Source: an uncultured Pseudomonas sp.
GTDB lineage: Bacteria > Pseudomonadota > Gammaproteobacteria > Pseudomonadales > Pseudomonadaceae
Direction: 5' to 3'
DNA length: 64,000 bases
Assembly: GCA_964518735.1 (NCBI GenBank)
Contig: CAZFKQ010000015.1
Span: 16,979-80,978 of the forward strand
In this document: one piece after another, positions 6,147 through 41,620 of the stretch
How the letters are laid out: the number at the start of each line of letters is the position of its first letter
Numbering within the stretch: position 1 is the stretch's first letter
Position numbers and translations under genes: made by a program
Notes under the pieces: generated by a model
Seen by the model: the letters and a program-made list of their open reading frames with translations, nothing else
What the model was told of the DNA's origin: nothing
Database searches by the model: none

Positions 6147-6613
6147 TGCAAAGCCGCTCCCTGGAAATCGGCGTCGGCCTGTTCCTGCTGGCTGGATTGC
6201 TGGCCCTGCTGTTGCTGGCCCTGCGTGTCAGTGGCCTGTCGGCAGTAAGTTCGGGCGATACCTACAAGCTCTATGCGCACTTCGACAATATTGCCGGGCT
6301 GACCGTCCGGGCCAAGGTCACCCTGGCTGGCGTGACTATCGGTAAGGTCACTGCCATCGACCTGGATCGCGACAGCTACACCGGTCGAGTGACCATGGAG
6401 GTGGAAAAGCGCGTGAATAATCTGCCTACAGACTCTACTGCATCCATTCTTACCGCCGGCCTGCTGGGCGAAAAATACATCGGCATCAGTGTGGGCGGCG
6501 AAGAAGAGGTGCTTGAGGCCGACGGGGTGATCAATGACACGCAATCGGCGCTGGTGCTGGAAGACCTTATTGGTAAGTTCCTGATCAACTCGGTAAATAA
6601 AGAAAGCAAATGA
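6146..6613 (+). CDS. mlaD: MCE-domain lipid asymmetry protein
   Basis: N-terminal TM, FDNIAGLTVRAKVTLAGVTIGKV, ILTAGLLGEKYI. Confidence 0.96.
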   Translation: MQSRSLEIGVGLFLLAGLLALLLLALRVSGLSAVSSGDTYKLYAHFDNIAGLTVRAKVTLAGVTIGKVTAIDLDRDSYTGRVTMEVEKRVNNLPTDSTASILTAGLLGEKYIGISVGGEEEVLEADGVINDTQSALVLEDLIGKFLINSVNKESK

Positions 6614-7269
6614 GGATTCTGAGCATGCTGAAGACTCTGCGAGCCGGGCTGTTGGTGGCGTTGGCTGCCCTTCCTTTGCTGGCCCAGGCGGCGCCCACCG
6701 CCCATGACGTGGTGCAGCAGACCACCGACCAGCTGATTGGCGACCTGAAAGCCAACAAGGTGGCTTACAAGCAGGCCCCCCAGGATTTCTACGATGCGCT
6801 GAATCGCATTCTTGGTCCGGTGGTGGATAGCGAAGGTATTTCGCGCAGCATCATGACCGTCAAGTATTCGCGCAAGGCCAGTCCTGAGCAGCTCCAGCGC
6901 TTCGAGGACAACTTCAAGCGCAGCCTGATGCAGTTCTACGGCAATGCCCTGCTCGAATACGACAATCAGGATATTCGTGTACTGCCAGCCAAGGTCGAGG
7001 GCGCCGATCGCGCCAGCGTCGGCATGCAAGTCAGTGACAGCAAGGGCACTGTCTACCCGGTTTCCTACACCATGGTGCAGATCGACGGCCAGTGGATGCT
7101 GCGCAACGTGATCATCAATGGCATCAACATCGGCAAGCTGTTCCGTGACCAGTTTGCCGACAGCATGCAGCGCAATGGCAATGATCTGGACAAGACCATC
7201 GACGGTTGGGCCGATGTAGTGGCCAAGGCCAAGGACAGCGCCACCGGTCAGCAGGCAAACGGGCAATGA
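6610..7269 (+). CDS. mlaC: Periplasmic phospholipid shuttle
   Basis: Signal peptide, WMLRNVIINGINIGKLFRDQF; operon position; start may be 6625. Confidence 0.93.
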   Translation: MRILSMLKTLRAGLLVALAALPLLAQAAPTAHDVVQQTTDQLIGDLKANKVAYKQAPQDFYDALNRILGPVVDSEGISRSIMTVKYSRKASPEQLQRFEDNFKRSLMQFYGNALLEYDNQDIRVLPAKVEGADRASVGMQVSDSKGTVYPVSYTMVQIDGQWMLRNVIINGINIGKLFRDQFADSMQRNGNDLDKTIDGWADVVAKAKDSATGQQANGQ

Positions 7270-7574
7270 ACGACGGTGCGATTCGCCAGGCTGCCAATGG
7301 CGAGCTGCAGCTCGTCGGTGTGCTCGACTATCGCACCGGTCCGGCCCTGCGTGAGGCGGGACGGCAACTGATCCAGGCCAGCACAAAGGCGAGCCTTGTG
7401 CTGGATTGTGCGGCGGTGCAGAAGTCCAGTAGCGTAGGTTTGTCCCTGCTGCTGGCGTTTATGCGTGATGCCAAGGCGGCAGGTAAGCAGTTGAGCGTCC
7501 GCGGGCTGCCTGCGGATATGCAGGAGATCGCCAGGGTTTCCGGTTTGCTCGAGGTGCTCGCGCCGCAAGCTTGA
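7266..7574 (+). CDS. mlaB: STAS-domain Mla subunit
   Basis: LDCAAVQKSSSVGLSLLLAF STAS motif; ATGA overlap with mlaC. Confidence 0.9.
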   Translation: MNDGAIRQAANGELQLVGVLDYRTGPALREAGRQLIQASTKASLVLDCAAVQKSSSVGLSLLLAFMRDAKAAGKQLSVRGLPADMQEIARVSGLLEVLAPQA

Positions 7575-7585
7575 GCGGCTGCAGG

Positions 7586-7636
7586 GCCCTCCGTCAGTGA
7601 TCCGGTATCCGGGCTTCGCAGGCGGGGGGCTTTTTT
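7586..7636 (+). terminator. Candidate intrinsic terminator after the mla operon
   Basis: GCCCTCCGTC pairs with GGCGGGGGGC (G-U allowed) around an inner hairpin, followed by T6. Confidence 0.45.
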
Positions 7637-7700
7637 GTATCATGGCCGGCCCGCGAGCCTTGGCCCGCCAATGATTTCTATGCGCCGATCGAGGTTGAGC

Positions 7701-9228
<1,528 letters not shown>

Positions 9229-9313
9229 TCGCTGGTTGCTCCACCGCTGTGCTGACGGGCCCCGCTCGTCGGCGCCAGACGCTTCAACGCGCTTCTAAGG
9301 ATTAGGTTTAGCA

Positions 9314-9946
9314 ATGCTCACCATCGCGCTGTCCAAAGGCCGCATTCTCGATGACACCCTGCCGTTGCTGGCTGAAGCCGGCATCGTGCCCACCGAGAAT
9401 CCGGAAAAGAGCCGCAAGCTGATCATCCCGACTACTCAGGATGATGTGCAGCTGCTGATCGTGCGGGCCACCGACGTGCCGACCTATGTCGAGCATGGCG
9501 CGGCCGACATTGGCGTGGCCGGCAAGGACGTGCTGCTCGAGTACGGCGGCGAGCTCTACGAGCCGCTGGACCTGCAGATTGCCAAGTGCAAACTGATGAC
9601 CGCTGGCAAGGTTGGTGCACCGGAGCCGAAAGGCCGCCTGCGTGTGGCCACCAAGTTCGTCAACGTGGCCAAGCGTTACTACGCCGAGCAGGGTCGTCAG
9701 GTCGAAGTGATCAAGCTGTACGGCTCCATGGAGCTGGCGCCGCTGGTCGGTCTGGCTGACAAGATCATCGACGTGGTCGACACCGGCAACACTTTGCGTG
9801 CCAACGGCCTGGAAGCCCAGGAACTGATCGCTACCATCAGCTCGCGACTGATCGTCAACAAGGCCTCGATGAAGATGCAGCACAGCCGCATCCAGGCGCT
9901 GATCGATACCCTGCGCAGCGCCGTCGAGTCCCGACACCCCAGCTAA
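9314..9946 (+). CDS. hisG: ATP phosphoribosyltransferase, short form (HisZ-dependent)
   Basis: [38 protein letters not shown]; 210 aa, no C-terminal regulatory domain. Confidence 0.96.
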
Positions 9947-12877: not shown

Positions 12878-14143
12878 TCAGCCGTAGCGCTTCTTCGCCT
12901 CGATGGCCAGGCCGCTGCCGATACTGCCGAAGGTGTTACCTTCGGTGGCGTGGGCGTTCGGCAGCAGGGCGCAGATACTCTGGCGCAGGGCCGGGATGCC
13001 GCTGGAACCGCCGGTAAAGAACACCGTGTCTATCTCTCCGGCCTTCACGCCGGCCTGCTTGAGCAGTTCGGCGACGCTGGCGGTAACGCGCTCCAGCAGG
13101 CCGTCGATGGCCTGGTCGAACAGGGCGCGGTCGAGCACGGCCTCCAGGCCGCTTTCGATCCGTCGCAGGTCAATGCGGTGCTGGTCGTGCTCGGTCAGGG
13201 CGATCTTGCTTTCCTCCACCTGCATGGCCAGCCAATGCCCGGCACGTTGCTCGATCAGCTTGAACAGGCGGTCGATGCCGGTCGGATCGACGATGTCGTA
13301 GCGCATGTTCTGCAAGGCCAGTTGCGACTTCTGCGCGTACACCGCGTTGATCGTGTGCCAGGTGGCCAGGTTGAGGTGGTAGCTGGTTGGCATGAAGGCG
13401 GCGCTCTTCATCCGGCTGCCGTAGCCGAACAGCGGCATCACGCCTTCCAGGCTGAGTTGTTTATCGAAGTCGGTGCCGCCGATGTGCACGCCGCCGGTGG
13501 CGAGGATGTCGCTCTGCCGGTCGGCCTGGTTGCGGCGCTCGGGTGACAGCCGGATCAGCGAGAAGTCCGAGGTACCGCCGCCGATATCGACGATCAGCAC
13601 GCGCTCCTCGCGAGTGATAGTACGCTCGTAGTCGAAGGCGGCGGCGATCGGCTCGAACTGGAAGGACACGTCCTTGAAGCCGAGTTTGTTGGCTACCGCC
13701 ACCAGAGTATTGGCAGCTTCCTGGTCGGCGACGGGGTCGTCGTCGACGAAGAATACCGGGCGGCCCAGCACCACCTGTTCGAACTCGCGACCAGCAAAGG
13801 CTTCGGCGCGCTTCTTCAGCTCACCGATAAAAAAGCCCAGCAGGTCACGAAACGGCAGGGCGCTGCCCAGCACAGTGGTTTCGCTTTTCAGCAGCTTGGA
13901 GCCCAGCAGGCTTTTCAACGAACGCATCAGGCGGCCTTCGTAGCCATCCAGGTATTCGTGAAGAGCCAGGCGCCCATACACCGGGCGGCGCTCCTCGGTG
14001 TTGAAGAACACCACCGAGGGCAGGGTGATCTTGCCGTCTTCCAGTTCCAGCAGCGGCTCGACGCCATGGCGCCACCAGCCGACGGTGGAGTTGGAAGTGC
14101 CGAAGTCGATGCCCAGGGCGGAGGCGGGAAGATCAAGACTCAT
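12878..14143 (-). CDS. yegD: Hsp70-family protein (YegD type)
   Basis: GIDFGTSNS, VDIGGGTSDFS, IGGTDFD, FFTGGSS; about 421 aa, no substrate-binding domain. Confidence 0.88.
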   Translation of the reverse strand: MSLDLPASALGIDFGTSNSTVGWWRHGVEPLLELEDGKITLPSVVFFNTEERRPVYGRLALHEYLDGYEGRLMRSLKSLLGSKLLKSETTVLGSALPFRDLLGFFIGELKKRAEAFAGREFEQVVLGRPVFFVDDDPVADQEAANTLVAVANKLGFKDVSFQFEPIAAAFDYERTITREERVLIVDIGGGTSDFSLIRLSPERRNQADRQSDILATGGVHIGGTDFDKQLSLEGVMPLFGYGSRMKSAAFMPTSYHLNLATWHTINAVYAQKSQLALQNMRYDIVDPTGIDRLFKLIEQRAGHWLAMQVEESKIALTEHDQHRIDLRRIESGLEAVLDRALFDQAIDGLLERVTASVAELLKQAGVKAGEIDTVFFTGGSSGIPALRQSICALLPNAHATEGNTFGSIGSGLAIEAKKRYG

Positions 14144-14329
14144 GCTGCAACGGTTCCGGGAAAAAACGGCCGCGCAGTTTATGCGAGAGTGGCGCTTCAT
14201 GCGCGGGGAATCTGTGTCCGCGTGTCGGGCGGGAGGTAATGGCCAAGTGCTACAGTAAGGCTAGCCAGGGAGCTAGGCGCCGATCAGGGCAACAGACTTC
14301 GTCGCCATCCTTGCCGTATAGGACAACTC

Positions 14330-15262
14330 ATGGCCATCTCTCGTACCTCTGCCTTGCCGCTCCGTGGTTGTGTTGCCGCACTTGCCTTGTTGCCCTGCCT
14401 GCTGTGGGCTGAATGCATCAACATGGTTACTGGTGCGGGAGGTCATACGTTCTGGCGGCAGGTGCAGCTTGGAGCGCAAATGGCGGCGCAGCAGCACAAG
14501 CTAGAAGTGTATTTTCGCGGACCACAGAACGAGCGAGACTCACAGCAGCAACTGCAGATCATTGATAAGGTGCTCGCCAGGCCCTGTGCTGCGTTGATCG
14601 TGGCGCCCAGTGGCCGCGATTTGCTGCCGCGCCTGGCAGCCCTGAAGAAGCAGGGTATGACCTTAGTGTTTATTGATCGCGACCTCGGCAGTCCTGATGT
14701 GTCGGGGGTGGTGGCCACAGACAATTTCCAGGCCGGCCTGCTGGCGGGTCAGCAGATGGCCCGTCTACTCAAGGGGCAAGGACGTGTGGCCCTGCTGCGT
14801 CCCAGCTCCAGTGCCCAGTCGGTAACCGATCGGGCGCGTGGCTTTATCCAGGGGGCTGGCGCCGGAGGTTTGCAGGTGGTTCTCGAGCGTTATCTGGTCG
14901 CCAGCGAAAGTGCGGAGCAAGCCAGTCTGGCTCGTGATCTGCGCGATCTGGATGGCGTTTTCTCGACCAGTGAGGCGGTCAGTCTGATGGCTTTGGGGGT
15001 GCTGCGTCGGGCGAAACTGGCCGGCACGCAGGTGCATATCGGTTTTGATGCCAATCCACAGCTGGTCGATGCGCTGCGTAATGGGCACATGGCGGGGTTG
15101 CTGGTTCAGCAGCCGTATCAGATGGGCTTCCAGAGCGTGGAATTGGCGGTGCGCTATCTGGATGGTGAACTAACCGCCCCAAGCAATGTTGCGTTGGCCG
15201 CCATATTTGTTGAGCGCCACAATCTTGCGGAGGAGCGCATCCAGCATCTGCTGTCGCCCTGA
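14330..15262 (+). CDS. Sugar-type (class I) periplasmic binding protein
   Basis: Signal peptide; FWRQVQLGA, VFIDR, VATDNFQAGLLAG, IGFD, LVQQPYQMG motifs; no HTH. Confidence 0.8.
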   Translation: MAISRTSALPLRGCVAALALLPCLLWAECINMVTGAGGHTFWRQVQLGAQMAAQQHKLEVYFRGPQNERDSQQQLQIIDKVLARPCAALIVAPSGRDLLPRLAALKKQGMTLVFIDRDLGSPDVSGVVATDNFQAGLLAGQQMARLLKGQGRVALLRPSSSAQSVTDRARGFIQGAGAGGLQVVLERYLVASESAEQASLARDLRDLDGVFSTSEAVSLMALGVLRRAKLAGTQVHIGFDANPQLVDALRNGHMAGLLVQQPYQMGFQSVELAVRYLDGELTAPSNVALAAIFVERHNLAEERIQHLLSP

Positions 15263-15326
15263 GTGGGCTAAGCCTGCAAGCGCTGAGCCATCGACTAGGC
15301 TGAGCTGAACAAGAAGGAGGGCGTAG

Positions 15327-16067
15327 ATGCGCGCATGGCTGATGGCCTGCTTGCTGGCAGGCATATTGCTGCCGAGCCTCGGTTCGGCCGAATTACTGCT
15401 GCTGACCGAGGAGGCGCCGCCGACCAGTTTTCGTCGCGACGGCAAGCTCGATGGCTACTCGGTGGAAGTGGTGCGCATGCTGGTGCGGCGCACCGGGCAT
15501 GCCGTGCACATGGAGCTGCTGCCCTGGACTCGGGCCTACCATCTGGCCAAGACCGAACCTGATACTGCCTTGTTCTCCATGGTTCGTACCGAGGAACGAG
15601 AGCTACTGTTCCAGTGGGTAGGGCCGATTCTGCAGGGCTCCACGCGGTTCTATTCGTTGAAATCCAGCAACCTGCGCATCGATACCCTGGAGGATGCCGC
15701 CAATAGTGGCACCCTGGCGCTGCCCAAGCAGTGGTACACCTTCGAGACGCTGGAGCGCATGGGCTTCAGCAATCTTTATGCGGTGCCAAGCTCCAGGCAG
15801 ATGGTGACAATGCTCAAGCATGGCCGGGTCAAGCTGATTGCCACCGAGGATGTGACCTTGCGTGAGGAGCTGGCTGCTGCCGGCCTCACGCCGGATGATG
15901 TGCAAAGCCATCTGGCTTTTATGAAGTCGGATTATTACATCGCCTTCTCCCCGCGCACCGACGCTGCCGTGGTGGCCGAATGGCAGCGTCAGCTTGACGG
16001 TATGCGGCGCGACGGTAGTCTGGGGCAAATCCTCAAACGCTGGCTGCCCGCTGCTGTCCAGCCCTGA
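15327..16067 (+). CDS. Family 3 (amino-acid type) periplasmic binding protein
   Basis: Signal peptide; TEEAPP, LPWTRA, FSMVRTEER, FQWVGPI. Confidence 0.8.
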   Translation: MRAWLMACLLAGILLPSLGSAELLLLTEEAPPTSFRRDGKLDGYSVEVVRMLVRRTGHAVHMELLPWTRAYHLAKTEPDTALFSMVRTEERELLFQWVGPILQGSTRFYSLKSSNLRIDTLEDAANSGTLALPKQWYTFETLERMGFSNLYAVPSSRQMVTMLKHGRVKLIATEDVTLREELAAAGLTPDDVQSHLAFMKSDYYIAFSPRTDAAVVAEWQRQLDGMRRDGSLGQILKRWLPAAVQP

Positions 16068-27102: not shown

Positions 27103-27178
<76 letters not shown>

Positions 27179-27188
27179 ACTTTCTTAT

Positions 27189-27265
27189 CGGGGTATAGCG
27201 CAGTCCGGTAGCGCGCTTGCTTTGGGAGCAAGATGTCGGGAGTTCGAATCCCCCTACCCCGACCA
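27189..27265 (+). tRNA. tRNA-Pro(TGG)
   Basis: 77 nt, CGGGGTA/TACCCCG acceptor stem, loop TTTGGGA, CCA end. Confidence 0.97.
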
Positions 27266-27270
27266 TTTTT

Positions 27271-27346
27271 GGGTCGTTAGCTCAGTTGGTAGAGCAGTTG
27301 GCTTTTAACCAATTGGTCGTAGGTTCGAATCCCACACGACCCACCA
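27271..27346 (+). tRNA. tRNA-Lys(TTT)
   Basis: 76 nt, GGGTCGT/ACGACCC acceptor stem, loop CTTTTAA, CCA end. Confidence 0.97.
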
Positions 27347-33163: not shown

Positions 33164-34030
33164 TTAAAACCGGGCAAATTGCAAATAGGCTCCAGTTATT
33201 TGATCACCCCAGAGCAGCGCAATCCAGCCGGCAATCGCCAGATAGGGGCCAAAGGGGATGGGCGTGCTGGTTTCTTGATTGCGCAAGCGCAGCATGATCA
33301 CACCCAGCACGGCGCCCACCAGCGATGACAGCAGAATGGTCAGCGGCAGGATTTGCCAGCCGCCCCAGGCGCCAAGCATGGCCAGCAGCTTGAAGTCGCC
33401 ATAGCCCATGCCTTCCTTGCCGGTCACCAGCTTGAACAGCCAGTACACCGACCACAGGCTCAGGTAGCCGGCAATCGCGCCCCACAGGGCATCGCCGAGG
33501 CTGGCGAACAAGCCGTGATAGTTGAGGATCAGCCCCAGCCAGAGCAGCGGCAGCACCAGCGTATCGGGCAGCAGTTGGTGGTCCGTATCGATCAGGCTCA
33601 TGGCCAGCAGGCCCCAGCTCAATACCAGCATGGCGCCGGCCTGCCAGCCGAAGCCGAAGTGCCAGGCTACATAGGCAGAGAGCAGGCCGCAGGTGAGCTC
33701 CACCAGCGGGTAGCGCTTACTGATAGGCGCCTTGCAGCTGGAGCATTTGCCGCGTAGCGCCAGCCAGCTCAGAACCGGGATGTTTTCCCAAGGCTTGATC
33801 TGGTGTCCGCAATGCGGGCAGCTGGAGTGCGGGAGGACCAGATTGAAGGTCTCGCCAGCGGGCTCTTCGGGCAGTTCGAGGATTTCCCGTGCCTGCATGC
33901 GCCATTCGCGCTGCATCATTTTTGGCAGGCGGTAGACCACCACATTGAGAAAGCTGCCGATCAGCAGGCCGAGCAGCAGTGCGGGTAAAACAAAGGCCGG
34001 CAAATTGCCGGCCAGGAGTTCAGCTGGCAT
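33164..34030 (-). CDS. pilD: Prepilin peptidase/N-methyltransferase
   Basis: GSFLNVVVYRLP, CPHC and CSSC, GMGYGDFKL, PFGPYLA. Confidence 0.97.
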   Translation of the reverse strand: MPAELLAGNLPAFVLPALLLGLLIGSFLNVVVYRLPKMMQREWRMQAREILELPEEPAGETFNLVLPHSSCPHCGHQIKPWENIPVLSWLALRGKCSSCKAPISKRYPLVELTCGLLSAYVAWHFGFGWQAGAMLVLSWGLLAMSLIDTDHQLLPDTLVLPLLWLGLILNYHGLFASLGDALWGAIAGYLSLWSVYWLFKLVTGKEGMGYGDFKLLAMLGAWGGWQILPLTILLSSLVGAVLGVIMLRLRNQETSTPIPFGPYLAIAGWIALLWGDQITGAYLQFARF

Positions 34031-34033
34031 TAA

Positions 34034-35254
34034 TCAACCTACAACAGAGCCGAGGGTGAATATGGGTAGGTACATGGCGATGATCAGGCCACCTACCAAT
34101 ACACCTAAAACCGCCATGATCATGGGCTCCATTAGTGTGGTTAGGTTGTCTACAGCGTTGTCGACCTCTGCCTCGTAAAACGAAGCAACCTTGTCGAGCA
34201 TTTCATCCAGTGCTCCTGACTCTTCGCCGATTGCGGTCATTTGAATCGCCATGCTTGGAAAGACGTCAACTGTACGCATAGCAAAGTTTAGTTGTATCCC
34301 AGAAGAGACATCCTGTTTTATCTTTTGCACTGCGTTACGGAAAACTACGTTGCCAGTGGCGCCGGCAACGGAGTCTAGCGCTTCAACTAGAGGCACCCCT
34401 GCTGAAAATGTAGTTGCCAGTGTGCGTGCATAACGTGCAACCACTGCCTTGTACATGATGTCGCCGACGATTGGCATTTTGAGCAGTGTGCGGTCCAGTG
34501 TGTCGCGAAACTTTTCTGAGCGTTTGTAGGTGTTTTGAAATAAAAATACGGCAGCGAACAGAAACCCTAGCACTGCGAACCACCACACCTGAATCCAGCG
34601 TGAAAGGTCTACAACCATTTGTGTGAAGCCGGGTAGTTCTGCTCCAAAGCCAGAAAATACATCTTCAAATTGCGGAACCACTTTGATCAACAGAATGGCT
34701 GTGACAATAACCGCAACGATGACAACTGCGATCGGATAGGTCATTGCTTTTTTAATTTTGGCTTTGAGTGCTTCGGTCTTTTCTTTGTAGGTTGCTACTC
34801 GGTCTAGCAGTGATTCCAAGGAGCCTGACTGTTCGCCAGCATCTACTAAATTGCAATACAGGTCGTCAAAGTACAGTGGCCTCTTGCGCAATGAAGAGGC
34901 AAAGCTATTGCCTGCGGCTACATCCTGCTTCACTTCGTCAACTAGCTTGCGCATGTTGGGGTTGTCGAAGCCTTCGCCGATTATATCGAACGATTGTAAC
35001 AGCGGTACGCCAGCTTTCATCATCGTCGCCATTTGTCGTGTGAACAGGGCGATATCCATCGGCTTAATTTTTTTGCCGGCGCTGAGAAATGACAAGCCTT
35101 CCTTGCGTACTTTGATCGGATTGATGCCCTGCTTGCGTAACTGGGCCTTTATCAATGCAGGGGATTGACCGTTGAGCTTGCCTTTAATTTTTGCGCCTTT
35201 TTTATCTGTACCTTCCCAGACATAGGAGCTGGTTTTGAGCGCTTTCTCAGCCAT
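34034..35254 (-). CDS. pilC: Type IV pilus platform protein
   Basis: FTRQMATMMKAGVPL, GEQSGSL, GEESGALD, EPMIMAVLG. Confidence 0.96.
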   Translation of the reverse strand: MAEKALKTSSYVWEGTDKKGAKIKGKLNGQSPALIKAQLRKQGINPIKVRKEGLSFLSAGKKIKPMDIALFTRQMATMMKAGVPLLQSFDIIGEGFDNPNMRKLVDEVKQDVAAGNSFASSLRKRPLYFDDLYCNLVDAGEQSGSLESLLDRVATYKEKTEALKAKIKKAMTYPIAVVIVAVIVTAILLIKVVPQFEDVFSGFGAELPGFTQMVVDLSRWIQVWWFAVLGFLFAAVFLFQNTYKRSEKFRDTLDRTLLKMPIVGDIMYKAVVARYARTLATTFSAGVPLVEALDSVAGATGNVVFRNAVQKIKQDVSSGIQLNFAMRTVDVFPSMAIQMTAIGEESGALDEMLDKVASFYEAEVDNAVDNLTTLMEPMIMAVLGVLVGGLIIAMYLPIFTLGSVVG

Positions 35255-35256
35255 GG

Positions 35257-36960
35257 TTAGTCCTTGGTCACGCGGTTGACTTCCTCAAGGCTGGTCACGC
35301 CCTGAATAGCTTTCAGTAAGCCGGAAGTTCGTAAGTCGTTGAAGCCGTCTTTTCGCATCTGCACGGCAATATCGATGGAGTTGCCTTCTTCCATGATAAT
35401 CCGTTGCAGGTTGGGCGTGTTTTTAACTACTTCATAAATACCAACACGTCCCTTGTAACCCCCTTTGCAGTTTTCACAGCCTATAGGGCCATAAAGCTTG
35501 AAGGTGCCAATCTTGTTTTCTGGGAAGCCTTCCTTGAGAAGTGCTTCGCGGGGTATGTCAACTTCTTTCTTGCAGCTATTGCAAAGCTTGCGGGCTAGGC
35601 GCTGGGCAATGATCAGGTTAACTGAGGTTGCAATGTTGAAAGAGGGGACGCCCATGTTGCGCAGGCGGGTCAGAGTTTCTGCCGCGCTGTTGGTATGCAG
35701 TGTAGACATAACCATGTGCCCAGTTTGGGCGGCTTTGATAGCAATTGAGGCTGTATCGAGGTCGCGAATCTCTCCGACCATTATGATGTCTGGGTCCTGC
35801 CGCAGAAAAGCGCGTAAGGCCTGGGTGAAGTCCATACCCTGTTTCGGGTTTACGTTGACTTGGTTGATGCCTTCCAAGTTAATTTCCACTGGGTCTTCGG
35901 CGGTGGAAATGTTCACGTCTACTGTGTTGAGTATGTTCAGGCCGGTATACAGTGAAACAGTCTTGCCTGATCCGGTTGGGCCAGTCACTAGAATCATGCC
36001 CTGTGGTTGCTTCAGAGCGCTCATGTAGAGGTCTTTCTGCTCTTCCTCGTAGCCAAGTGCATCAATACCCATTTGAGCGCTGCTGGGGTCGAGAATCCGC
36101 ATTACAATTTTCTCTCCCCACAAGGTGGGGAGGGTGTTGACCCGAAAGTCGATGGCCTTGGTTTTGGATATTTTCATCTTGATCCGGCCATCCTGAGGCT
36201 TGCGCCTTTCGGAAATATCTAAACCGGCCATGACCTTCAGGCGCGCGGATAGTCGGGGGGCTAGTTGAATAGGGGGGCGTGCCACTTCGTGTAGGATGCC
36301 GTCGGTACGGAAGCGTACTCTGTACGCTTTTTCATAGGGTTCAAAGTGCAGATCTGACGATCCTCCTTTGATTGCATCCAGCAGCATTTTGTTGACAAAG
36401 CGTACAACAGGAGCATCGTCAGCGTCGCCACCTGTGCTGTTATCATCGGCATCCTCATCAACTGCCTGGACGTCAAGTCCATCTAGATCTACGTCGCCCA
36501 AGTCCTCCATGCCGCTATTGCCGGAGTCAAAGAGTTTTTCGATGGCTTCGCCGAGCTTGTCATCATCGACAAGCAAGGATTCAGTGCTTAGTCCTGTACT
36601 GAACTGTACATCGGTTACGGCTTGGTGGTTGGTTGGATCTGATATCGCTATAAACAGCTTGTTGCCGCGCTTATGCAGCGGAAGGACTCGATGCTGACGG
36701 CAGAGTTTCTCGCTGACTAAGTCGCGTGGCTGGTTTTCTTTATCCAGGCAGCTGAGGTCAAAATAAGGTAGGCCGAACTGATCCGCCGCTACCTCGGTAA
36801 TGCTACGGCTACTGGCAATTTTATGTTGGACCAGATAGGTGACAAGCGGTATTTGGTTACGCTGTGCTTGTGCTTGTGCCTGGCTAGCAGTCTTGCTATC
36901 GAGCAACTCTGCTGCTACCAGTTGGCGGGCTAGACCTGTGAGGGGGGGGGTTTCACTCAT
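35257..36960 (-). CDS. pilB: Type IV pilus extension ATPase
   Basis: GPTGSGKT, LRQDPDIIMVGEIRD, STLHTN, CNSC/CENC zinc motif. Confidence 0.97.
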   Translation of the reverse strand: MSETPPLTGLARQLVAAELLDSKTASQAQAQAQRNQIPLVTYLVQHKIASSRSITEVAADQFGLPYFDLSCLDKENQPRDLVSEKLCRQHRVLPLHKRGNKLFIAISDPTNHQAVTDVQFSTGLSTESLLVDDDKLGEAIEKLFDSGNSGMEDLGDVDLDGLDVQAVDEDADDNSTGGDADDAPVVRFVNKMLLDAIKGGSSDLHFEPYEKAYRVRFRTDGILHEVARPPIQLAPRLSARLKVMAGLDISERRKPQDGRIKMKISKTKAIDFRVNTLPTLWGEKIVMRILDPSSAQMGIDALGYEEEQKDLYMSALKQPQGMILVTGPTGSGKTVSLYTGLNILNTVDVNISTAEDPVEINLEGINQVNVNPKQGMDFTQALRAFLRQDPDIIMVGEIRDLDTASIAIKAAQTGHMVMSTLHTNSAAETLTRLRNMGVPSFNIATSVNLIIAQRLARKLCNSCKKEVDIPREALLKEGFPENKIGTFKLYGPIGCENCKGGYKGRVGIYEVVKNTPNLQRIIMEEGNSIDIAVQMRKDGFNDLRTSGLLKAIQGVTSLEEVNRVTKD

Positions 36961-37038
36961 AAAATGTGTGCTGCGCAGTAGGGGGGCTCTCGCACTTATA
37001 GCCCAAATTCAAGAAAGGCCCAAGCAGCAGCTTCGCGG

Positions 37039-37063
37039 GTGACGAAATGTGTCACATCTTGTC
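37039..37063 (+). promoter_or_regulatory. Candidate PilR upstream activator sites
   Basis: GTGAC-N7-GTCAC inverted repeat plus a further TGTC, about 65-90 bp upstream of the sigma54 site. Confidence 0.5.
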
Positions 37064-37126
37064 AAAGATGCGGTCTTCTTCGGTGGCTGCTGGGGATGTA
37101 ATGGCTTCTAGGTGTTGTTTCTCGTA

Positions 37127-37143
37127 TTGGCATGCAATGTGCA
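37127..37143 (+). promoter_or_regulatory. Sigma54 -24/-12 promoter of the pilin genes
   Basis: TTGGCATGCAATGTGCA: GG 37129-37130, 10-nt spacer, GC 37141-37142. Confidence 0.8.
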
Positions 37144-37188
37144 TTTTCAAGCGCAGGTCGTTGACCTTAACCACACAGGAGCATTTCC

Positions 37189-37374
37189 ATGAAGTCCCTC
37201 AAGAAGCAAAAAGGCTTTACCCTGATCGAGCTGATGATCGTGGTTGCAATCATTGGTATTCTGGCTGCCATCGCCATTCCGCAGTTCAATGAGTATCGTG
37301 CCAAGGCGAACGACTCGTCTGCCAAGGCGGACACCAAGAACATGATCACCGTCATCTCTGCAGCAATGATCTGA
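37189..37374 (+). CDS. pilA: Truncated type IVa pilin, helix only (PilA-N-like)
   Basis: Class III leader [31 protein letters not shown]; 52-aa mature chain; RBS AGGAG. Confidence 0.92.
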
Positions 37375-37392
37375 TTTTCCAGGAGAATTTTT

Positions 37393-37839
37393 ATGAATAA
37401 GCAACTTATTGCCGCTTTGATGGCTGCTGGGCTGGGTGTTGCATCGAGCATGGCTTTCGCTGCTCCTGCTGCATTTCAGAACAACCAAGAAGTAACCGGC
37501 GGTGTCGGTAATGATTGTGCTCTTCTTGCTGAAGACGTGACCCTTGGCGTTTCCAAGAACGTGCATGGTGCTTATAACTGCGACGAAACAGAGAACCTTG
37601 TTCAGGTTGCTGCCTGTCATGAAGGTGGCAGCCGTCAGGTTGGTGTTGCCTGTGTTGACCTAGATCCGCTCGTTGTAGGTGATCAGCTGCCACCGGGTTG
37701 CGCTCAAGCAGGTGGTAACTCTACTATTCCGGATTACAAGGCTTTCTTCACCTCTAGTGAAGGTGGCGTGATGCAGGAATACCAGTTGGGTGCTCGTTGT
37801 GATGCGGGTACTATTGTTGGTATTGACGGTTTTGACTGA
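37393..37839 (+). CDS. Sec-exported Cys-rich protein, putative PilA-C-like pilin head
   Basis: Own RBS AGGAG; signal peptide MNKQLIAALMAAGLGVASSMAFA/A; 6 Cys; Gly-rich; directly after the truncated pilin. Confidence 0.8.
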   Translation: MNKQLIAALMAAGLGVASSMAFAAPAAFQNNQEVTGGVGNDCALLAEDVTLGVSKNVHGAYNCDETENLVQVAACHEGGSRQVGVACVDLDPLVVGDQLPPGCAQAGGNSTIPDYKAFFTSSEGGVMQEYQLGARCDAGTIVGIDGFD

Positions 37840-37870
37840 TCGGTTTGCGCTGATTTGATTGATACTGCTG

Positions 37871-37907
37871 AAGAAATCGCTTGGCTTAGCCAAGCGATTT
37901 CTTTTTG
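37871..37907 (+). terminator. Intrinsic terminator closing the two-gene pilin unit
   Basis: AAGAAATCGCTTGGC-TTA-GCCAAGCGATTTCTT (15-bp stem) then T-run. Confidence 0.88.
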
Positions 37908-38029
37908 TTTGTGCTGTATGCCTTTGAAATTCGTTATATCGAGTGCAGTGAGCGGATTTTAGTAAGTTTAATGAGTGTGTGGTGGATGAGGATGTTTAGC
38001 ACAGCAAATTATCACTGGGTTTCTCGCGC

Positions 38030-38839
38030 ATGACATTCTTCTCTGGTTGCTTCTTCGGGCTGCGTCTAGCGCTGAGGGCCCGTTTTTTACCTGTTTCGTT
38101 GTGGCTGCTTGGCCTGATTTTATTAGCGGCAGCGTTGGCCGCCCAGTTTAGTGGACGCCAGCCCGCCAGTGTTGCTTTGGATGTGGGTATTTCTACGATC
38201 CGTCTTGTTTTGCCTTTCGTTGTTGTTTTACTTGTTCAGGAAATCATTTCCCGCGAATTCGAGCGGCGTTATTTTTTGAATACCTTGAGTTTTCCGTTCA
38301 CGCGTGCACAGTTCCTATTGCAGCGTTTCTGTGCAGTTACCCTTCTTAGTCAAATGCTTTTGTTGGTGTCGGCTGCTGCTTTGGCGCTATCCGTTTGGCT
38401 GATTTCTGCAGGCTACGAGCAAGGCACTGCTGTAGCGTTGGGTAAGCATTATTGGCTAACCATCCTGTTCATCGCTGTAGAGCTCTGTGTTCTAGCGGCT
38501 TTAGCTACGCTTCTGGCAGTCACAGCCTCGACACCAAGCTTTGTGCTCATAGGTACCTTCGGTTTTCTACTGGTCGCTCGTTCTTTTGCTTCTATTATCG
38601 AGTTATTGGCTCGTAATCAATATGTGGTTCACGATGCGGAGCGCTATAGTGCAGGGATTGGCATGCTCGGTTACCTGTTGCCTGATCTGGGGGCTTTGGA
38701 TGTGCGGATGATCGCGCTTTATGGGCGCATGGAGTTTCTTCCGTCGGACTGGCTCTGGTTGGTGCTTTCTAGTGCATGCTACGCAGCAGGTCTGCTGGCA
38801 TTGGCAGTATGGGCGCTCAATCGAAAGCGTTTTGCCTGA
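38030..38839 (+). CDS. ABC-2 type permease (PilI/Xap-like)
   Basis: About 6 hydrophobic segments; ISREFERR...FPFTRAQFLLQRF; YLLPDL; C-terminal RKRFA. Confidence 0.8.
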   Translation: MTFFSGCFFGLRLALRARFLPVSLWLLGLILLAAALAAQFSGRQPASVALDVGISTIRLVLPFVVVLLVQEIISREFERRYFLNTLSFPFTRAQFLLQRFCAVTLLSQMLLLVSAAALALSVWLISAGYEQGTAVALGKHYWLTILFIAVELCVLAALATLLAVTASTPSFVLIGTFGFLLVARSFASIIELLARNQYVVHDAERYSAGIGMLGYLLPDLGALDVRMIALYGRMEFLPSDWLWLVLSSACYAAGLLALAVWALNRKRFA

Positions 38840-38841
38840 AT

Positions 38842-39675
38842 ATGTCACGTCGTCATATCCCCCTATTGTTAGCCTTGCTGGGTTTCACTCTATTTGCAGG
38901 TGTTGCTTTCTGGCGTGCCCAATTACCAATCAAGCCAAGCCTTGAGGCGGGTTTGGATCGGGTTGTAATAAGTGCTCCCATCTTGGTTGTGCTCTACGGC
39001 GGTGATCGCTTCCTTGCTGCAGATTTGGAAGTTGTGCGCCTAGCTGCTACCGGTCTCGATGATAGGGGGGTAGACACGGGATACTTGGTTCGCGCTCAGC
39101 AAGAGGTTGCCCGGCTCAATCCCTGTCATGAAGACAATTACTATCTGGCTAATGGTCTGCTTACCTGGGGTGGGGCAGTTGCGGAGGGTAATCGGGTGCT
39201 TGAGGCGGCGGTGGAGTGTCGTTTTTGGGACTATGTCCCCCCGTTTTTTTATGGCGTCAATTTGAGCTTTTTTCAGCGTGATAACGCGAAGGCCGCTCGC
39301 GTGCTGGAGTTTGGCGCTGAGCGCTCCCCAGAGAATGCCGCCGCTTTGCGTAAGCTCGCGATTATGCTGCAGGCTGAGCAGTTTTCCGACGAGCGTCTGG
39401 TGTTGGGGTATTTGACTCAGCAGCGCGATTCGACCAGTGATCCAAAGCTCAGAGGGATGCTTAATAAGCGAGTGATCCGTATTCAGGGGCTTTTAGATTT
39501 GCGTTTGGCGCAGCGGCGGTATGAAAAAGTACGCGGCCCTTTGCAAAGCCTTCAACAGTTGCTCGATAGTGGTGAGTTGGCGAAAATTCCCGATGATCCG
39601 CTGCGTATTGGCTATGAAATCAAAAACGGCCGTATCGAATTGAAGAAACTTAAAATCGCTGGGATGGAGGGCTAG
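38842..39675 (+). CDS. Membrane-anchored TPR-like protein (PilG/XapA-like)
   Basis: N-terminal TM; LNPCHEDNYYLA...RFWDYVPPFFYGVNLSFFQRD helical repeats; ATG 38842 just after the permease stop. Confidence 0.7.
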   Translation: MSRRHIPLLLALLGFTLFAGVAFWRAQLPIKPSLEAGLDRVVISAPILVVLYGGDRFLAADLEVVRLAATGLDDRGVDTGYLVRAQQEVARLNPCHEDNYYLANGLLTWGGAVAEGNRVLEAAVECRFWDYVPPFFYGVNLSFFQRDNAKAARVLEFGAERSPENAAALRKLAIMLQAEQFSDERLVLGYLTQQRDSTSDPKLRGMLNKRVIRIQGLLDLRLAQRRYEKVRGPLQSLQQLLDSGELAKIPDDPLRIGYEIKNGRIELKKLKIAGMEG

Positions 39676-39677
39676 CC

Positions 39678-40595
39678 TTGGGCGTGGCGCTGGAGTTTTT
39701 GCAAGTCAGCCAGACCTTTCGCGCCAAGGGCAAGGAAGTCCGTGCTCTGCGGGATGTGAGCTTTGCCTTGGATGAGGGTGAGGTTTTTGGTTTTGTTGGG
39801 CCGAATGGTGCGGGCAAGTCCACAACCATAAAGGTGATGCTGGACATCATTAATGACTATCAGGGGCGAGTGCTTATTTACGGAGTTGATGCCTGTCGCG
39901 CCGAATCCCGCACAGATATTGCCTACGTACCGGAGTCTCCAGCGCTATATGAGCAGTTCACTCCGCTGGAGATCCTGCGAATGGGTCTTTCCATGCACGG
40001 TATCAAGCGCAAGGATGCTGATGCTTGGTGTATGCAATGGTTGGAGCGCTTTTCTGTTGCTGCGGCCGCCAAGCGCCGCATTCGTGAGTTGTCCAAGGGT
40101 ACGGTGCAGCGTGTGGCGCTTGCTCATGCCATGGTCGTTCAGCCCAAGTTGCTGATTCTCGATGAGCCGCTTTCTGGTCTCGATCCGGTGGGGCGCAAGG
40201 ATGTGGTGGATATCCTCAATGAGTACAAGAGCCAAGGCGGTGCGATCTTTTTCACTTCCCATGTGCTGCACGATGTCGAGCGTATTGCCGACCGTTTTGG
40301 CTTTATCAACAAGGGGGAGTTGTTGACGGTGCGCTCCCCGCGTGAATTGGCGGCTGAGCGTGCAGATACCTTGCTGGTGCGTTTCAACGCTGCGGAAGGC
40401 TTTGCGCCGGAAGCCAAACGTCTGCGTGAGGGGGAGTTCGAGTGTGAGCTGATGCAGGCGGAACTGCCTGCTTTTGTCACACGGCTCAATCAGGCTGCTG
40501 GGCATATCCTCACGATCAAGCCGGCTGTCTCGCTGGAAACCGTATTCTTCAAGATTCTCGGTGATGCCGCGCGCAAGGATGCGCCGGTAGTCTGA
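39678..40595 (+). CDS. ABC transporter ATPase (PilH/XapD-like)
   Basis: GPNGAGKST, variant signature LSKGT, LILDEPLSGLDP, FFTSH; TTG start. Confidence 0.88.
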   Translation: MGVALEFLQVSQTFRAKGKEVRALRDVSFALDEGEVFGFVGPNGAGKSTTIKVMLDIINDYQGRVLIYGVDACRAESRTDIAYVPESPALYEQFTPLEILRMGLSMHGIKRKDADAWCMQWLERFSVAAAAKRRIRELSKGTVQRVALAHAMVVQPKLLILDEPLSGLDPVGRKDVVDILNEYKSQGGAIFFTSHVLHDVERIADRFGFINKGELLTVRSPRELAAERADTLLVRFNAAEGFAPEAKRLREGEFECELMQAELPAFVTRLNQAAGHILTIKPAVSLETVFFKILGDAARKDAPVV

Positions 40596-40647
40596 ATCAG
40601 TTGTATGTCGCTTTGCCGGATGTTTTTCGGCAAAATGGCGCCCGCAA

Positions 40648-40723
40648 GCCGGTGTAGCTCAGTCGGTAGAGCAGCGCACTCGTAACGCGAAGGTCGCAGG
40701 TTCGATTCCTGTCTCCGGCACCA
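40648..40723 (+). tRNA. tRNA-Thr(CGT)
   Basis: 76 nt, loop CTCGTAA, TTCGA T-loop, CCA end; has stem mismatches. Confidence 0.92.
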
Positions 40724-40728
40724 GATGC

Positions 40729-40758
40729 AAAAAAGCCCGCCTATTGGCGGGCTTTTTC
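40729..40758. terminator. Bidirectional terminator
   Basis: AAAAAAGCCCGCC-TATT-GGCGGGCTTTTT. Confidence 0.85.
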
Positions 40759-40771
40759 ATGGCTGGAGTTT

Positions 40772-41620
40772 TTACAGGCTCAAGCGCATCGACAGGTCGA
40801 TGGCTTTGATGTCCTTGGTCAGGCTGCCGATGGAGATGTAGTCCACGCCGGTTTCGGCGATGGTGCGCAGGGTGCTTTCGTTGATACCGCCGGAGGCTTC
40901 CAGCTTGGCGCGGCCAGCAGTGATGTTCACGGCGGTGCGCATATCGGCCAGGCTGAGCTCGTCGAGCATGATGATGTCGGCACCGGCATCCAGAGCCTGC
41001 TGCAGTTCGGTCAGGCTCTCCACTTCAACTTCCACCGGTTTGCCGGGTGCAATCTGGTGGGCAGCGGCAATGGCCTGAGCGATGCCGCCACAGGCGGCAA
41101 TATGGTTTTCCTTGATCAGGAAGGCGTCATAGAGGCCGATGCGGTGGTTATGGCAGCCGCCGCAAGTGACGGCATATTTTTGCGCCAGGCGCAGGCCGGG
41201 TAGGGTCTTGCGGGTGTCGAGCAATTTGACCTGGGTGTCTTTGATCAGGTCGGCAAAATGTTGGCAGCGTGTGGCGACAGCGGACAGGCTTTGCAGAAAG
41301 TTCAGTGCACTGCGCTCGCCGCTGAGCAGGGCGCGGGCCGGGCCTTCCAGATGAAAGAGTGGCTGGTTGGCGTCTGCTCGCTGGCCATCTGTTACTTGCC
41401 AGTGCACGGCGACCCGCGGGTCGAGTTGGCGGAACACTTCGTCAACCCAGGCCGTTCCAGCAATAACTGCGCGCTCGCGGGTGATAATAGTGGCGTGGGC
41501 CAGGCGCTCCGCTGGGATCAGCTGGGCGGTGATGTCGCCACTGCCGATATCTTCACGCAGTGCTGCGCGGACATTGGCTTGGATTTCGGCGCCGAGGTCG
41601 GCAAGGATGAGGTTGGGCAT
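40772..41620 (-). CDS. nadC: Quinolinate phosphoribosyltransferase
   Basis: [39 protein letters not shown]. Confidence 0.97.

Follow-up and report, generated by a model that had tools for sequence, protein, structure and literature searches.

The requirement of PilG, PilH and PilI for the formation of Myxococcus pili was reportedly described in 1998, and xapD is said to have been linked to the surface biology of Geobacter since 2011. Here we describe a related three-gene ATP-binding cassette (ABC) transporter locus that follows a short pilin gene in the DNA of an uncultured Pseudomonas sp. (contig CAZFKQ010000015.1). The stretch analysed comprises 64,000 nucleotides (nt) and is called the window in the following; all coordinates are window positions. 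According to our analysis, the cassette (38030-40595, plus strand) is probably a pilin-dedicated ABC-2 accessory system of the PilGHI/Xap type that serves pilin biogenesis, and not a generic exporter.

In Myxococcus xanthus, PilG, PilH and PilI were described as "essential for the translocation of pilin across the IM" (inner membrane), and the mutants are negative for type IV pili and resemble pilA mutants (Wu et al. 1998 as cited in PMC3724824). In pilG/H/I mutants, as in a pilA deletion, the pilB(WA) allele suppresses the defect in exopolysaccharide (EPS) (PMC3724824), and a pilGHI deletion, which can be complemented, is devoid of S motility and EPS (PMC5544727). For G. sulfurreducens strain PCA, a supplementary table of PMC5585712 lists GSU1499 (xapB, 792 bp), GSU1500 (855 bp) and GSU1501 (xapD, 912 bp), together with GSU1498 (xapA, 1749 bp), which encodes a different, larger protein. 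Transposon sequencing on electrodes yielded defects for GSU1499-1501 of the same size as those for pilA-N and pilA-C (PMC5585712, supplement), and PilA was undetectable on a western blot of a xapD mutant (bioRxiv 10.1101/114900).

In the window, five plus-strand genes fill the interval between pilB and tRNA-Thr, which is the classical pilin slot in Pseudomonas: those for a short pilin, a secreted protein, a permease, a middle protein and an ATPase (Table 1). The last three form the cassette and are separated from each other by gaps of 2 nt. An earlier note on this DNA had described this trio as an ABC-2 permease, a helical-repeat protein anchored by a transmembrane segment and an ATPase with the signature LSKGT, tightly packed; open reading frames (ORFs) and motifs bear out every one of these details. 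We retrieved the corresponding region of the G. sulfurreducens chromosome via its PilA sequence. There, the order is pilB-pilT-pilC-pilS-pilR-pilA-N-pilA-C, followed by genes for proteins of 267, 285 and 300 amino acids (aa), whose assignment to GSU numbers rests on the gene lengths and gene order in the PMC5585712 supplement. The window proteins match these three in the same order, the permease with 27% identity (BLASTP E value 7e-10), the middle protein with 28% (7e-18) and the ATPase with 38% (7e-57).

For Myxococcus, most of the M. xanthus PilC sequence was rebuilt from its alignment with PDB entry 3jc8, which led to the pil cluster of Corallococcus (Myxococcus) macrosporus CP022203. This genome, and not that of M. 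xanthus DK1622, is the one compared here; at PilC, it shares 97% identity with the M. xanthus sequence in the PDB. The cluster reads pilA (217 aa), pilG (303 aa, no Pfam match), pilH (326 aa, ABC ATPase), pilI (255 aa, ABC-2 permease) and pilD. The middle protein of the window matches PilG with an E value of 2e-5 in a pairwise BLASTP comparison, and a profile built from 53 members of its family does so in hhalign with 98.4% and an E value of 6.9e-15 over 182 columns. The ATPase is 32% identical to PilH over 300 residues (E 4e-52), which taken alone would be a weak indication of PilH-likeness, ABC ATPases being generally similar to each other. The permease matches PilI with an E value of 2e-8 over 67 residues around a conserved ISRE-ERR motif, and both proteins match PF12679/PF12730. 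The PilG/H/I- or Xap-like identity proposed in the earlier note thus holds up, as all three proteins are homologous to the Geobacter trio and to PilI, PilG and PilH of the Myxococcus group. Its likeness to xapA-D has to be narrowed: homology extends to xapB, GSU1500 and xapD (GSU1499-1501), whereas the window encodes no protein of the xapA type.

A search of 5.8 billion proteins returned 938 relatives of the middle protein. The 120 best of them are 70-100% identical to it; those with a named organism derive from Stutzerimonas or Pseudomonas and are annotated as "hypothetical protein". In an exhaustive search of representatives, the family amounted to 343 clusters at 50% identity, nearly all members having 265-295 aa. 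The alignment of 53 members contains the conserved motifs GGDR(Y/F)LAAN, LNPxHEDNYY, RxWD..P.F and, at the C-terminus, P-x-DP-x-G-x-(Y/F)...G. With this alignment we scanned one genome per species, found 233 relatives and analysed the best 80 loci, which belong to Gamma- and Betaproteobacteria. Permease, middle protein and ATPase occur together in essentially all complete loci among these 80, and in about 77 of them the N-terminus of a pilin is encoded just upstream, with the trio downstream. Wherever the pilin frame could be followed (76 loci), the mature pilin has 52-54 aa, a count of 76 out of 76 that describes the cassette-bearing loci of this subfamily alone, since the scan pattern is subfamily-specific. 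In most surveyed loci the gene directly after that of the short pilin encodes a signal-peptide-bearing product of about 110-165 aa. The short pilin, the PilA-C-like protein and the trio are a conserved five-gene module in the slot between pilB and tRNA-Thr. The co-occurrence with short pilins that the earlier note had named as a check is seen in every readable cassette locus, and the outcome that would have spoken against its proposal, generic ABC-2 exporters free of any pilin linkage, is excluded by the pilins upstream of the trio.

Within the Pseudomonadaceae, the cassette was found in Stutzerimonas, Ectopseudomonas, Aquipseudomonas, Geopseudomonas and relatives of P. anguilliseptica and P. 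peli; other hosts are Thauera and further Rhodocyclaceae, Thiohalomonas, Saccharospirillum, Deefgea, Chitiniphilus and Lampropedia. Clearly, the cassette is no peculiarity of this genome; Stutzerimonas and other Pseudomonadaceae commonly carry it. A search of the searchable literature, subscription papers excluded, returned no description of the cassette in Pseudomonas or Stutzerimonas, nor of PilGHI outside Myxococcus. Pseudomonas has been listed among the taxa with truncated pilins, the ABC genes being left unmentioned (Shu et al. 2016, PMC5174107). The idea of a new accessory class for Pseudomonas is accordingly right in so far as the searchable literature does not describe it, and has to be qualified in that public Pseudomonadaceae genomes commonly carry it.

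A role of the cassette in translocation, stability or assembly of pilin appears well supported by analogy, on the basis of this synteny together with the published phenotypes of homologues. The same grounds make it likely that the cassette is the transporter or chaperone for the split pilin envisaged in the earlier note. Pilin handling would be the simplest function common to all of these loci, with effects on EPS presumably arising in a secondary step.

The PilG-like middle protein is the least familiar component. Its ATG lies at 38842, 2 nt past the permease stop codon, and its homologues have 277-279 aa at 100% coverage; a longer ORF starting at 38776 was rejected, as it conflicts with these lengths. 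A single transmembrane segment (residues 6-24) follows basic residues at the N-terminus, and the remainder is nearly all helical. Basic residues before the anchor, together with two invariant cysteines of the close subfamily, suggest that the domain is probably periplasmic. Pfam and NCBIfam returned no match for the protein, and a search of PDB sequences with the protein alone gave one chance match (E 0.056). Searched against the PDB, the family profile gave weak matches of the tetratricopeptide repeat (TPR) type, and its C-terminal motif matched eight entries of the pseudopilin GspG with E values of 0.018-1.8. Among the 53 family members, Pfam recognised TPR_14 in four and T2SSG in four. An AlphaFold 2 model of the whole protein, calculated from a shallow alignment, had a mean predicted local distance difference test (pLDDT) score of 73.8, with values of 85-97 past about residue 150, and is all-helical except for a terminal beta-hairpin; fold searches with this model gave generic TPR or helical-repeat matches, every E value exceeding 0.4. 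Modelled alone, the C-terminal 82 residues (196-277; 39427-39672) reached a pLDDT of 90.5 and consist of a 30-residue helix, a short helix and the beta-hairpin. The top fold match of this module is the type IV pilin PilJ of C. difficile (TM score 0.52, E 3.6), and its P-x-DP-x-G motif resembles the "DPWG" motif of GspG pseudopilins, though the matches are statistically weak. We take this as a weak hint that the PilG-like protein may carry a pilin- or pseudopilin-like head, a lead and not a finding.

The ATPase gene starts with TTG at 39678, preceded by GGAGGG, 2 nt past the stop codon of the middle-protein gene. The protein contains Walker A (GPNGAGKS), the signature LSKGT at residue 138, Walker B (LLILDE) and the H-loop (SH). 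The form xSKGx of the signature is a trait of the whole family: the proteobacterial loci have LSKGN/T/M or FSKGM, Geobacter and Myxococcus have YSKGM, and the Walker motifs are intact throughout. Compared with the two ATPases of the Geobacter locus, the window protein scores 173 bits against that of the trio and 71 bits against the Wzt-like one. NCBIfam provided a family-level assignment for none of the three cassette proteins. The scores of the ATPase stayed below the cut-offs for DrrA (TIGR01188, 184 versus 312 bits), GldA (143 versus 403), lantibiotic protection (TIGR03740, 145 versus 309.75) and PmtA (112 versus 350). PADLOC returned partial, generic matches of the ATPase to ABC-like ATPases of defence systems and zero matches for the permease and the middle protein; a reading of the locus as a defence system was dropped, the matches being of this generic kind alone. 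The permease has about six hydrophobic segments, scores 26.1 bits against PF12730 (ABC2_membrane_4; cutoff 27) and also matches PF12679.

The gene at 37189-37374 contains the one prepilin motif of the whole window. The top PDB matches of its product are Geobacter structures of "geopilin domain 1": 7tgg (3e-18), 9egp and 2m7g. The pilin is helix-only, because 52 aa remain after cleavage of the leader. The secreted protein encoded behind it shows marginal similarity to Geobacter PilA-C (E 1e-3); it is the PilA-C counterpart by position and at most a putative homologue.

Genes upstream of the pilin, namely coaE, pilB, pilC and pilD, lie on the minus strand. About 47 nt 5' of the start codon of the short pilin gene there is a candidate sigma-54-type element, which fits pilin control of the PilR/RpoN type. 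The pilin pair and the cassette are not contiguous but parted by a spacer of 190 nt with a terminator-like hairpin inside. Scanning 36900-40800 with Rfam gave the tRNA alone and no other RNA family. A cluster of tRNA-Asn, tRNA-Pro and tRNA-Lys at 27103-27346, about 10 kb before the pil locus, is unrelated to the cassette.

Table 1. Features of the pilin locus in the window (positions in nt)
Feature	Position	Strand	Remarks
pilD, prepilin peptidase	33164-34030	-	ORF; counterpart in related loci carries PF06750/PF01478
pilC, platform protein	34034-35254	-	matches M. xanthus PilC (PDB 3jc8), 1.3e-105; start of the lower-GC divergent block
pilB, assembly ATPase	35257-36960	-	matches M. xanthus PilB (PDB 3jc8), 2.4e-157
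Candidate sigma-54-type -24/-12 element	37128-37143	+	TGGCATGCAATGTGCA; GG at 37129-30, GC at 37141-42, N10 between; recognised by eye
Short prepilin, PilA-N type	37189-37374	+	61 aa, 52 aa mature; PF07963 (N_methyl), 6.9e-12
Secreted protein, positional PilA-C counterpart	37393-37839	+	148 aa; signal-peptide-like N-terminus, six cysteines
Terminator-like hairpin	37870-37904	+	strong; 16-bp stem and T run; separates the secreted-protein gene from the cassette
ABC-2 permease, PilI / XapB (GSU1499) homologue	38030-38839	+	269 aa; PF12730, PF12679
PilG / GSU1500-family protein	38842-39675	+	277 aa; N-terminal anchor, TPR-like helical repeats, C-terminal helix and beta-hairpin module
ABC ATPase, PilH / XapD (GSU1501) homologue	39678-40595	+	305 aa; PF00005, 8.8e-29
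tRNA-Thr(CGT)	40648-40723	+	boundary of the pilin slot
nadC	40772-41620	-	ORF; conserved flank, 83-95% aa identity in related Pseudomonadaceae loci

The GC content of about 0.61 drops to 0.46-0.55 between about 34000 and 40250, with 0.46-0.50 at pilC. DNA identity to Aquipseudomonas guryensis, the nearest species (locus L031 of our survey), is 84-96% in the flanks and 36-80% in a block from about 33900 to 40070, which extends from pilC into the 5' half of the ATPase gene; the lowest values, 36-43%, fall on the PilA-C-like gene. An identity of 87-96% is regained at about 40070, inside the ATPase gene, and this position implies a putative recombination breakpoint within that gene. In A. guryensis, the same arrangement of five genes occupies this slot; we therefore regard the change as an allelic replacement in a recombination-prone pilin island and not as a new insertion. 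The block in the window would thus be an allele exchange comparable to the pilin groups of P. aeruginosa. The Pseudomonadaceae have no fewer than two versions of the module that diverge deeply, with middle proteins that are either 59-73% or 34-41% identical to that of the window. The earlier view that the cassette had been imported together with the pilin finds a counterpart in the divergent, lower-GC recombination block, but not in the sense of a new insertion, since the sister species holds the same five-gene module.

Some of the surveyed loci deviate from this layout. In about fifteen, a second short pilin, again of 52-54 aa when mature, is encoded between the PilA-C-like gene and the permease gene (L001 at 6604-6792, L009, L018, L027, L045-L051, L055, L064); the window has none. 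The cassette of the Thauera sp. locus L037 appears to be split by a Phd/YefM-ParE toxin-antitoxin pair between the PilG-like and ATPase genes (8827-9674), and a similar gap occurs in the Thauera loci L039, L042, L052 and L054. In Parachitinimonas caeni (L073, 4199-7888), the permease gene and the PilG-like gene are set apart by a gene for a 1229-aa protein with many TPRs and a GT9-like C-terminus; L068, L078, L082, L084 and L085 have a similarly large gap there. Proteins of the xapA type (582-634 aa; Geobacter-type loci L086 at 13266-15850 and L089 at 6661-8565) gave weak GT-C (PMT_2) and TPR signals. The position of xapA itself varies, being before the trio in strain PCA and after it in strain AP017912. 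In L086, the xapA-type gene is followed by a gene of the UbiA family (GSU1502, xapE in strain PCA, a decaprenyl-phosphate phosphoribosyltransferase), an arrangement that recalls the D-arabinofuranose route of pilin glycosylation in P. aeruginosa group IV strains.

If the cassette is indeed a pilin-dedicated system, the PilG-like protein would most likely sit in the inner membrane with its single N-terminal helix and extend the TPR-like domain and the helix/beta-hairpin module into the periplasm. The permease, driven by the ATPase, would act at the inner membrane on pilin subunits, both this substrate and the direction of transport being presumed. It could carry the hydrophilic C-terminal part of the pilin across, or hold the hydrophobic helix in an assembly-competent state. 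The periplasmic domain of the PilG-like protein might then take over the pilin or pair it with its PilA-C-like partner. When the system is absent, pilin would not accumulate and pili would not form.

Several points weigh against this picture of a pilin-dedicated system. The pilus phenotypes stem from mutants of M. xanthus and Geobacter, none from the Pseudomonadaceae (PMC3724824, 10.1101/114900). The xapD mutant was first described as a mutant in EPS export. Myxococcus has the system beside a full-length pilin (217-aa precursor), so there is no intrinsic specificity for split pilins. The subfamily-bound survey and the brevity of the permease-PilI match also have to be borne in mind. Furthermore, the hairpin and spacer suggest that cassette and pilin pair may be uncoupled in expression, with the cassette served by read-through or by a promoter of its own, and the gradient of divergence across the block is compatible with ABC genes that hitch-hike on a diversifying pilin locus. 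A bolder version of the proposal, which we consider possible but doubtful, treats the five genes as an obligate unit: ultra-short pilins, too small for the usual co-translational pathway, would depend on a dedicated ATP-driven route of insertion, translocation or extraction, and the PilG-like domain would join the helix-only pilin to a separately secreted head. If true, this would add to the formation of type IV pili a step that has so far gone unrecognised, and the exopolysaccharide phenotype of Geobacter xap mutants would become a secondary effect of a pilin defect.

An export of surface polysaccharide or another glycan, the function after which xap (extracellular anchoring polysaccharide) was named, would affect pili indirectly, e.g. 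through an anchoring or modifying glycan. We regard this as unlikely, although a xapD mutant reportedly makes about 50% less EPS (cited in 10.1101/114900), xapD is annotated as a sugar ABC transporter in PMC5585712, and ABC-2 permeases typically export glycans. The genomic context can be read both ways. The neighbours of the Geobacter trio include a GT-C/TPR protein, a UbiA-type phosphoribosyltransferase and glycosyltransferases, and one betaproteobacterial cassette includes the 1229-aa TPR and GT9-like protein; yet glycan-synthesis genes do not adjoin the trio in the window or in most of the 80 loci, and the Geobacter locus has a separate Wzm/Wzt-type pair (PF01061 and Wzt_C). The window ATPase lacks Wzt_C, and its permease matches PF12730/PF12679 and not PF01061. 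At a second locus of the Desulfuromonadales type (L089), the trio comes after the pilin pair and a TPR protein, and the genes behind it are unrelated housekeeping genes; the absence of polysaccharide genes there indicates that the trio is tied to the pilin and not to such genes. Suppression of the M. xanthus EPS defect by a pilB allele likewise points to a regulatory effect downstream of missing pili and to no block in export.

Strict linkage to ultra-short, helix-only pilins would also suit a peptide pump of the LanFEG/Pmt type that expels or extracts the very hydrophobic 52-aa pilin, or fragments left after retraction, from the inner membrane and thereby protects the cell instead of building the pilus. 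This seems quite unlikely to us. The permease matches PF12730, and lantibiotic protection and phenol-soluble-modulin export are among the best NCBIfam matches of the ATPase, but these scores lie far under their cut-offs and do not place it in either family. Moreover, the M. xanthus system accompanies a large globular pilin, published mutants lose pilin and accumulate no toxic form, and the conserved PilG-like periplasmic protein would be left unexplained. It is very improbable, finally, that a generic ABC-2 exporter or a defence gene merely resides in the recombination-prone pilin island. The lower-GC, highly divergent block with its breakpoint in the ATPase gene, the terminator-like hairpin before the cassette and the partial PADLOC matches of the ATPase would agree with such a passenger. 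However, synteny with short pilins spans two proteobacterial classes and Geobacter, far beyond what hitch-hiking would produce, the permease and the middle protein drew no match from PADLOC, and the homologues have pilus phenotypes.

Two diverging literatures, one on a pilus factor in Myxococcus and one on a polysaccharide exporter in Geobacter, are shown here to deal with a single family. Dozens of Gamma- and Betaproteobacteria keep the cassette tied to helix-only pilins and a secreted partner, which suggests that the handling of pilin is what these systems share, and some of the hosts, e.g. relatives of the naturally transformable Stutzerimonas stutzeri, are fast-growing and tractable for work on the mechanism. 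Geobacter-type split pilins and their accessory machinery extend well past the metal reducers, which bears on the debate over the purpose of such pili.

In P. aeruginosa, the slot between pilA and tRNA-Thr holds tfpO, tfpW, tfpX, tfpY or tfpZ (PMC11841053). The window cassette shares with these accessory genes the location between the major pilin gene and tRNA-Thr/nadC as well as an island-like allelic diversity. However, the P. aeruginosa accessory factors are single proteins, whereas the window encodes a three-protein, ATP-driven transporter beside a split pilin, and this transporter contains no glycosyltransferase, O-antigen-ligase or other accessory-type Pfam domain. Neither Pfam nor NCBIfam gave any homology of the TfpO/W/X/Y/Z type, two of the proteins matching ABC-2 or ABC_tran alone and the third nothing. 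From Wzm/Wzt exporters the cassette differs by the lack of PF01061, Wzt_C and adjacent glycan-synthesis genes. With the GldAFG, NosDFY, LanFEG and DrrAB systems it has in common a DrrA-like ATPase, a six-helix ABC-2 permease and an extra subunit that is no transporter; it deviates in that all NCBIfam scores are below the cut-offs and in that the accessory protein has no match to the GldG, NosD or LanI type.

Compared with Myxococcus PilGHI, the pilin there is full-length and not split, and the genes are arranged as G-H-I, while the window and Geobacter have I-G-H; this order is a descriptive and not a functional feature. Shared are the three homologous proteins and the location of their genes directly downstream of the major pilin gene. 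The Geobacter trio differs from that of the window by its identity of just 27-38%, by a PilA-C protein barely similar to its counterpart, and by a pilin that has 61 aa in PDB chain 2m7g, compared with 52 aa in the mature window pilin. The surroundings differ as well, the window having a pilBCD / tRNA-Thr / nadC setting instead of pilB-pilT-pilC-pilS-pilR. The xapA-type GT-C/TPR protein and the downstream glycan genes of Geobacter are absent from the window, and we found no xapA, xapE, glycosyltransferase or UbiA genes near its cassette that would assign it to a xap polysaccharide cluster. On the other hand, both trios follow a short pilin and a small secreted partner, both have the order permease, middle protein and ATPase with similar sizes (267/285/300 aa in Geobacter and 269/277/305 aa in the window), and both share the xSKGx signature of the ATPase.

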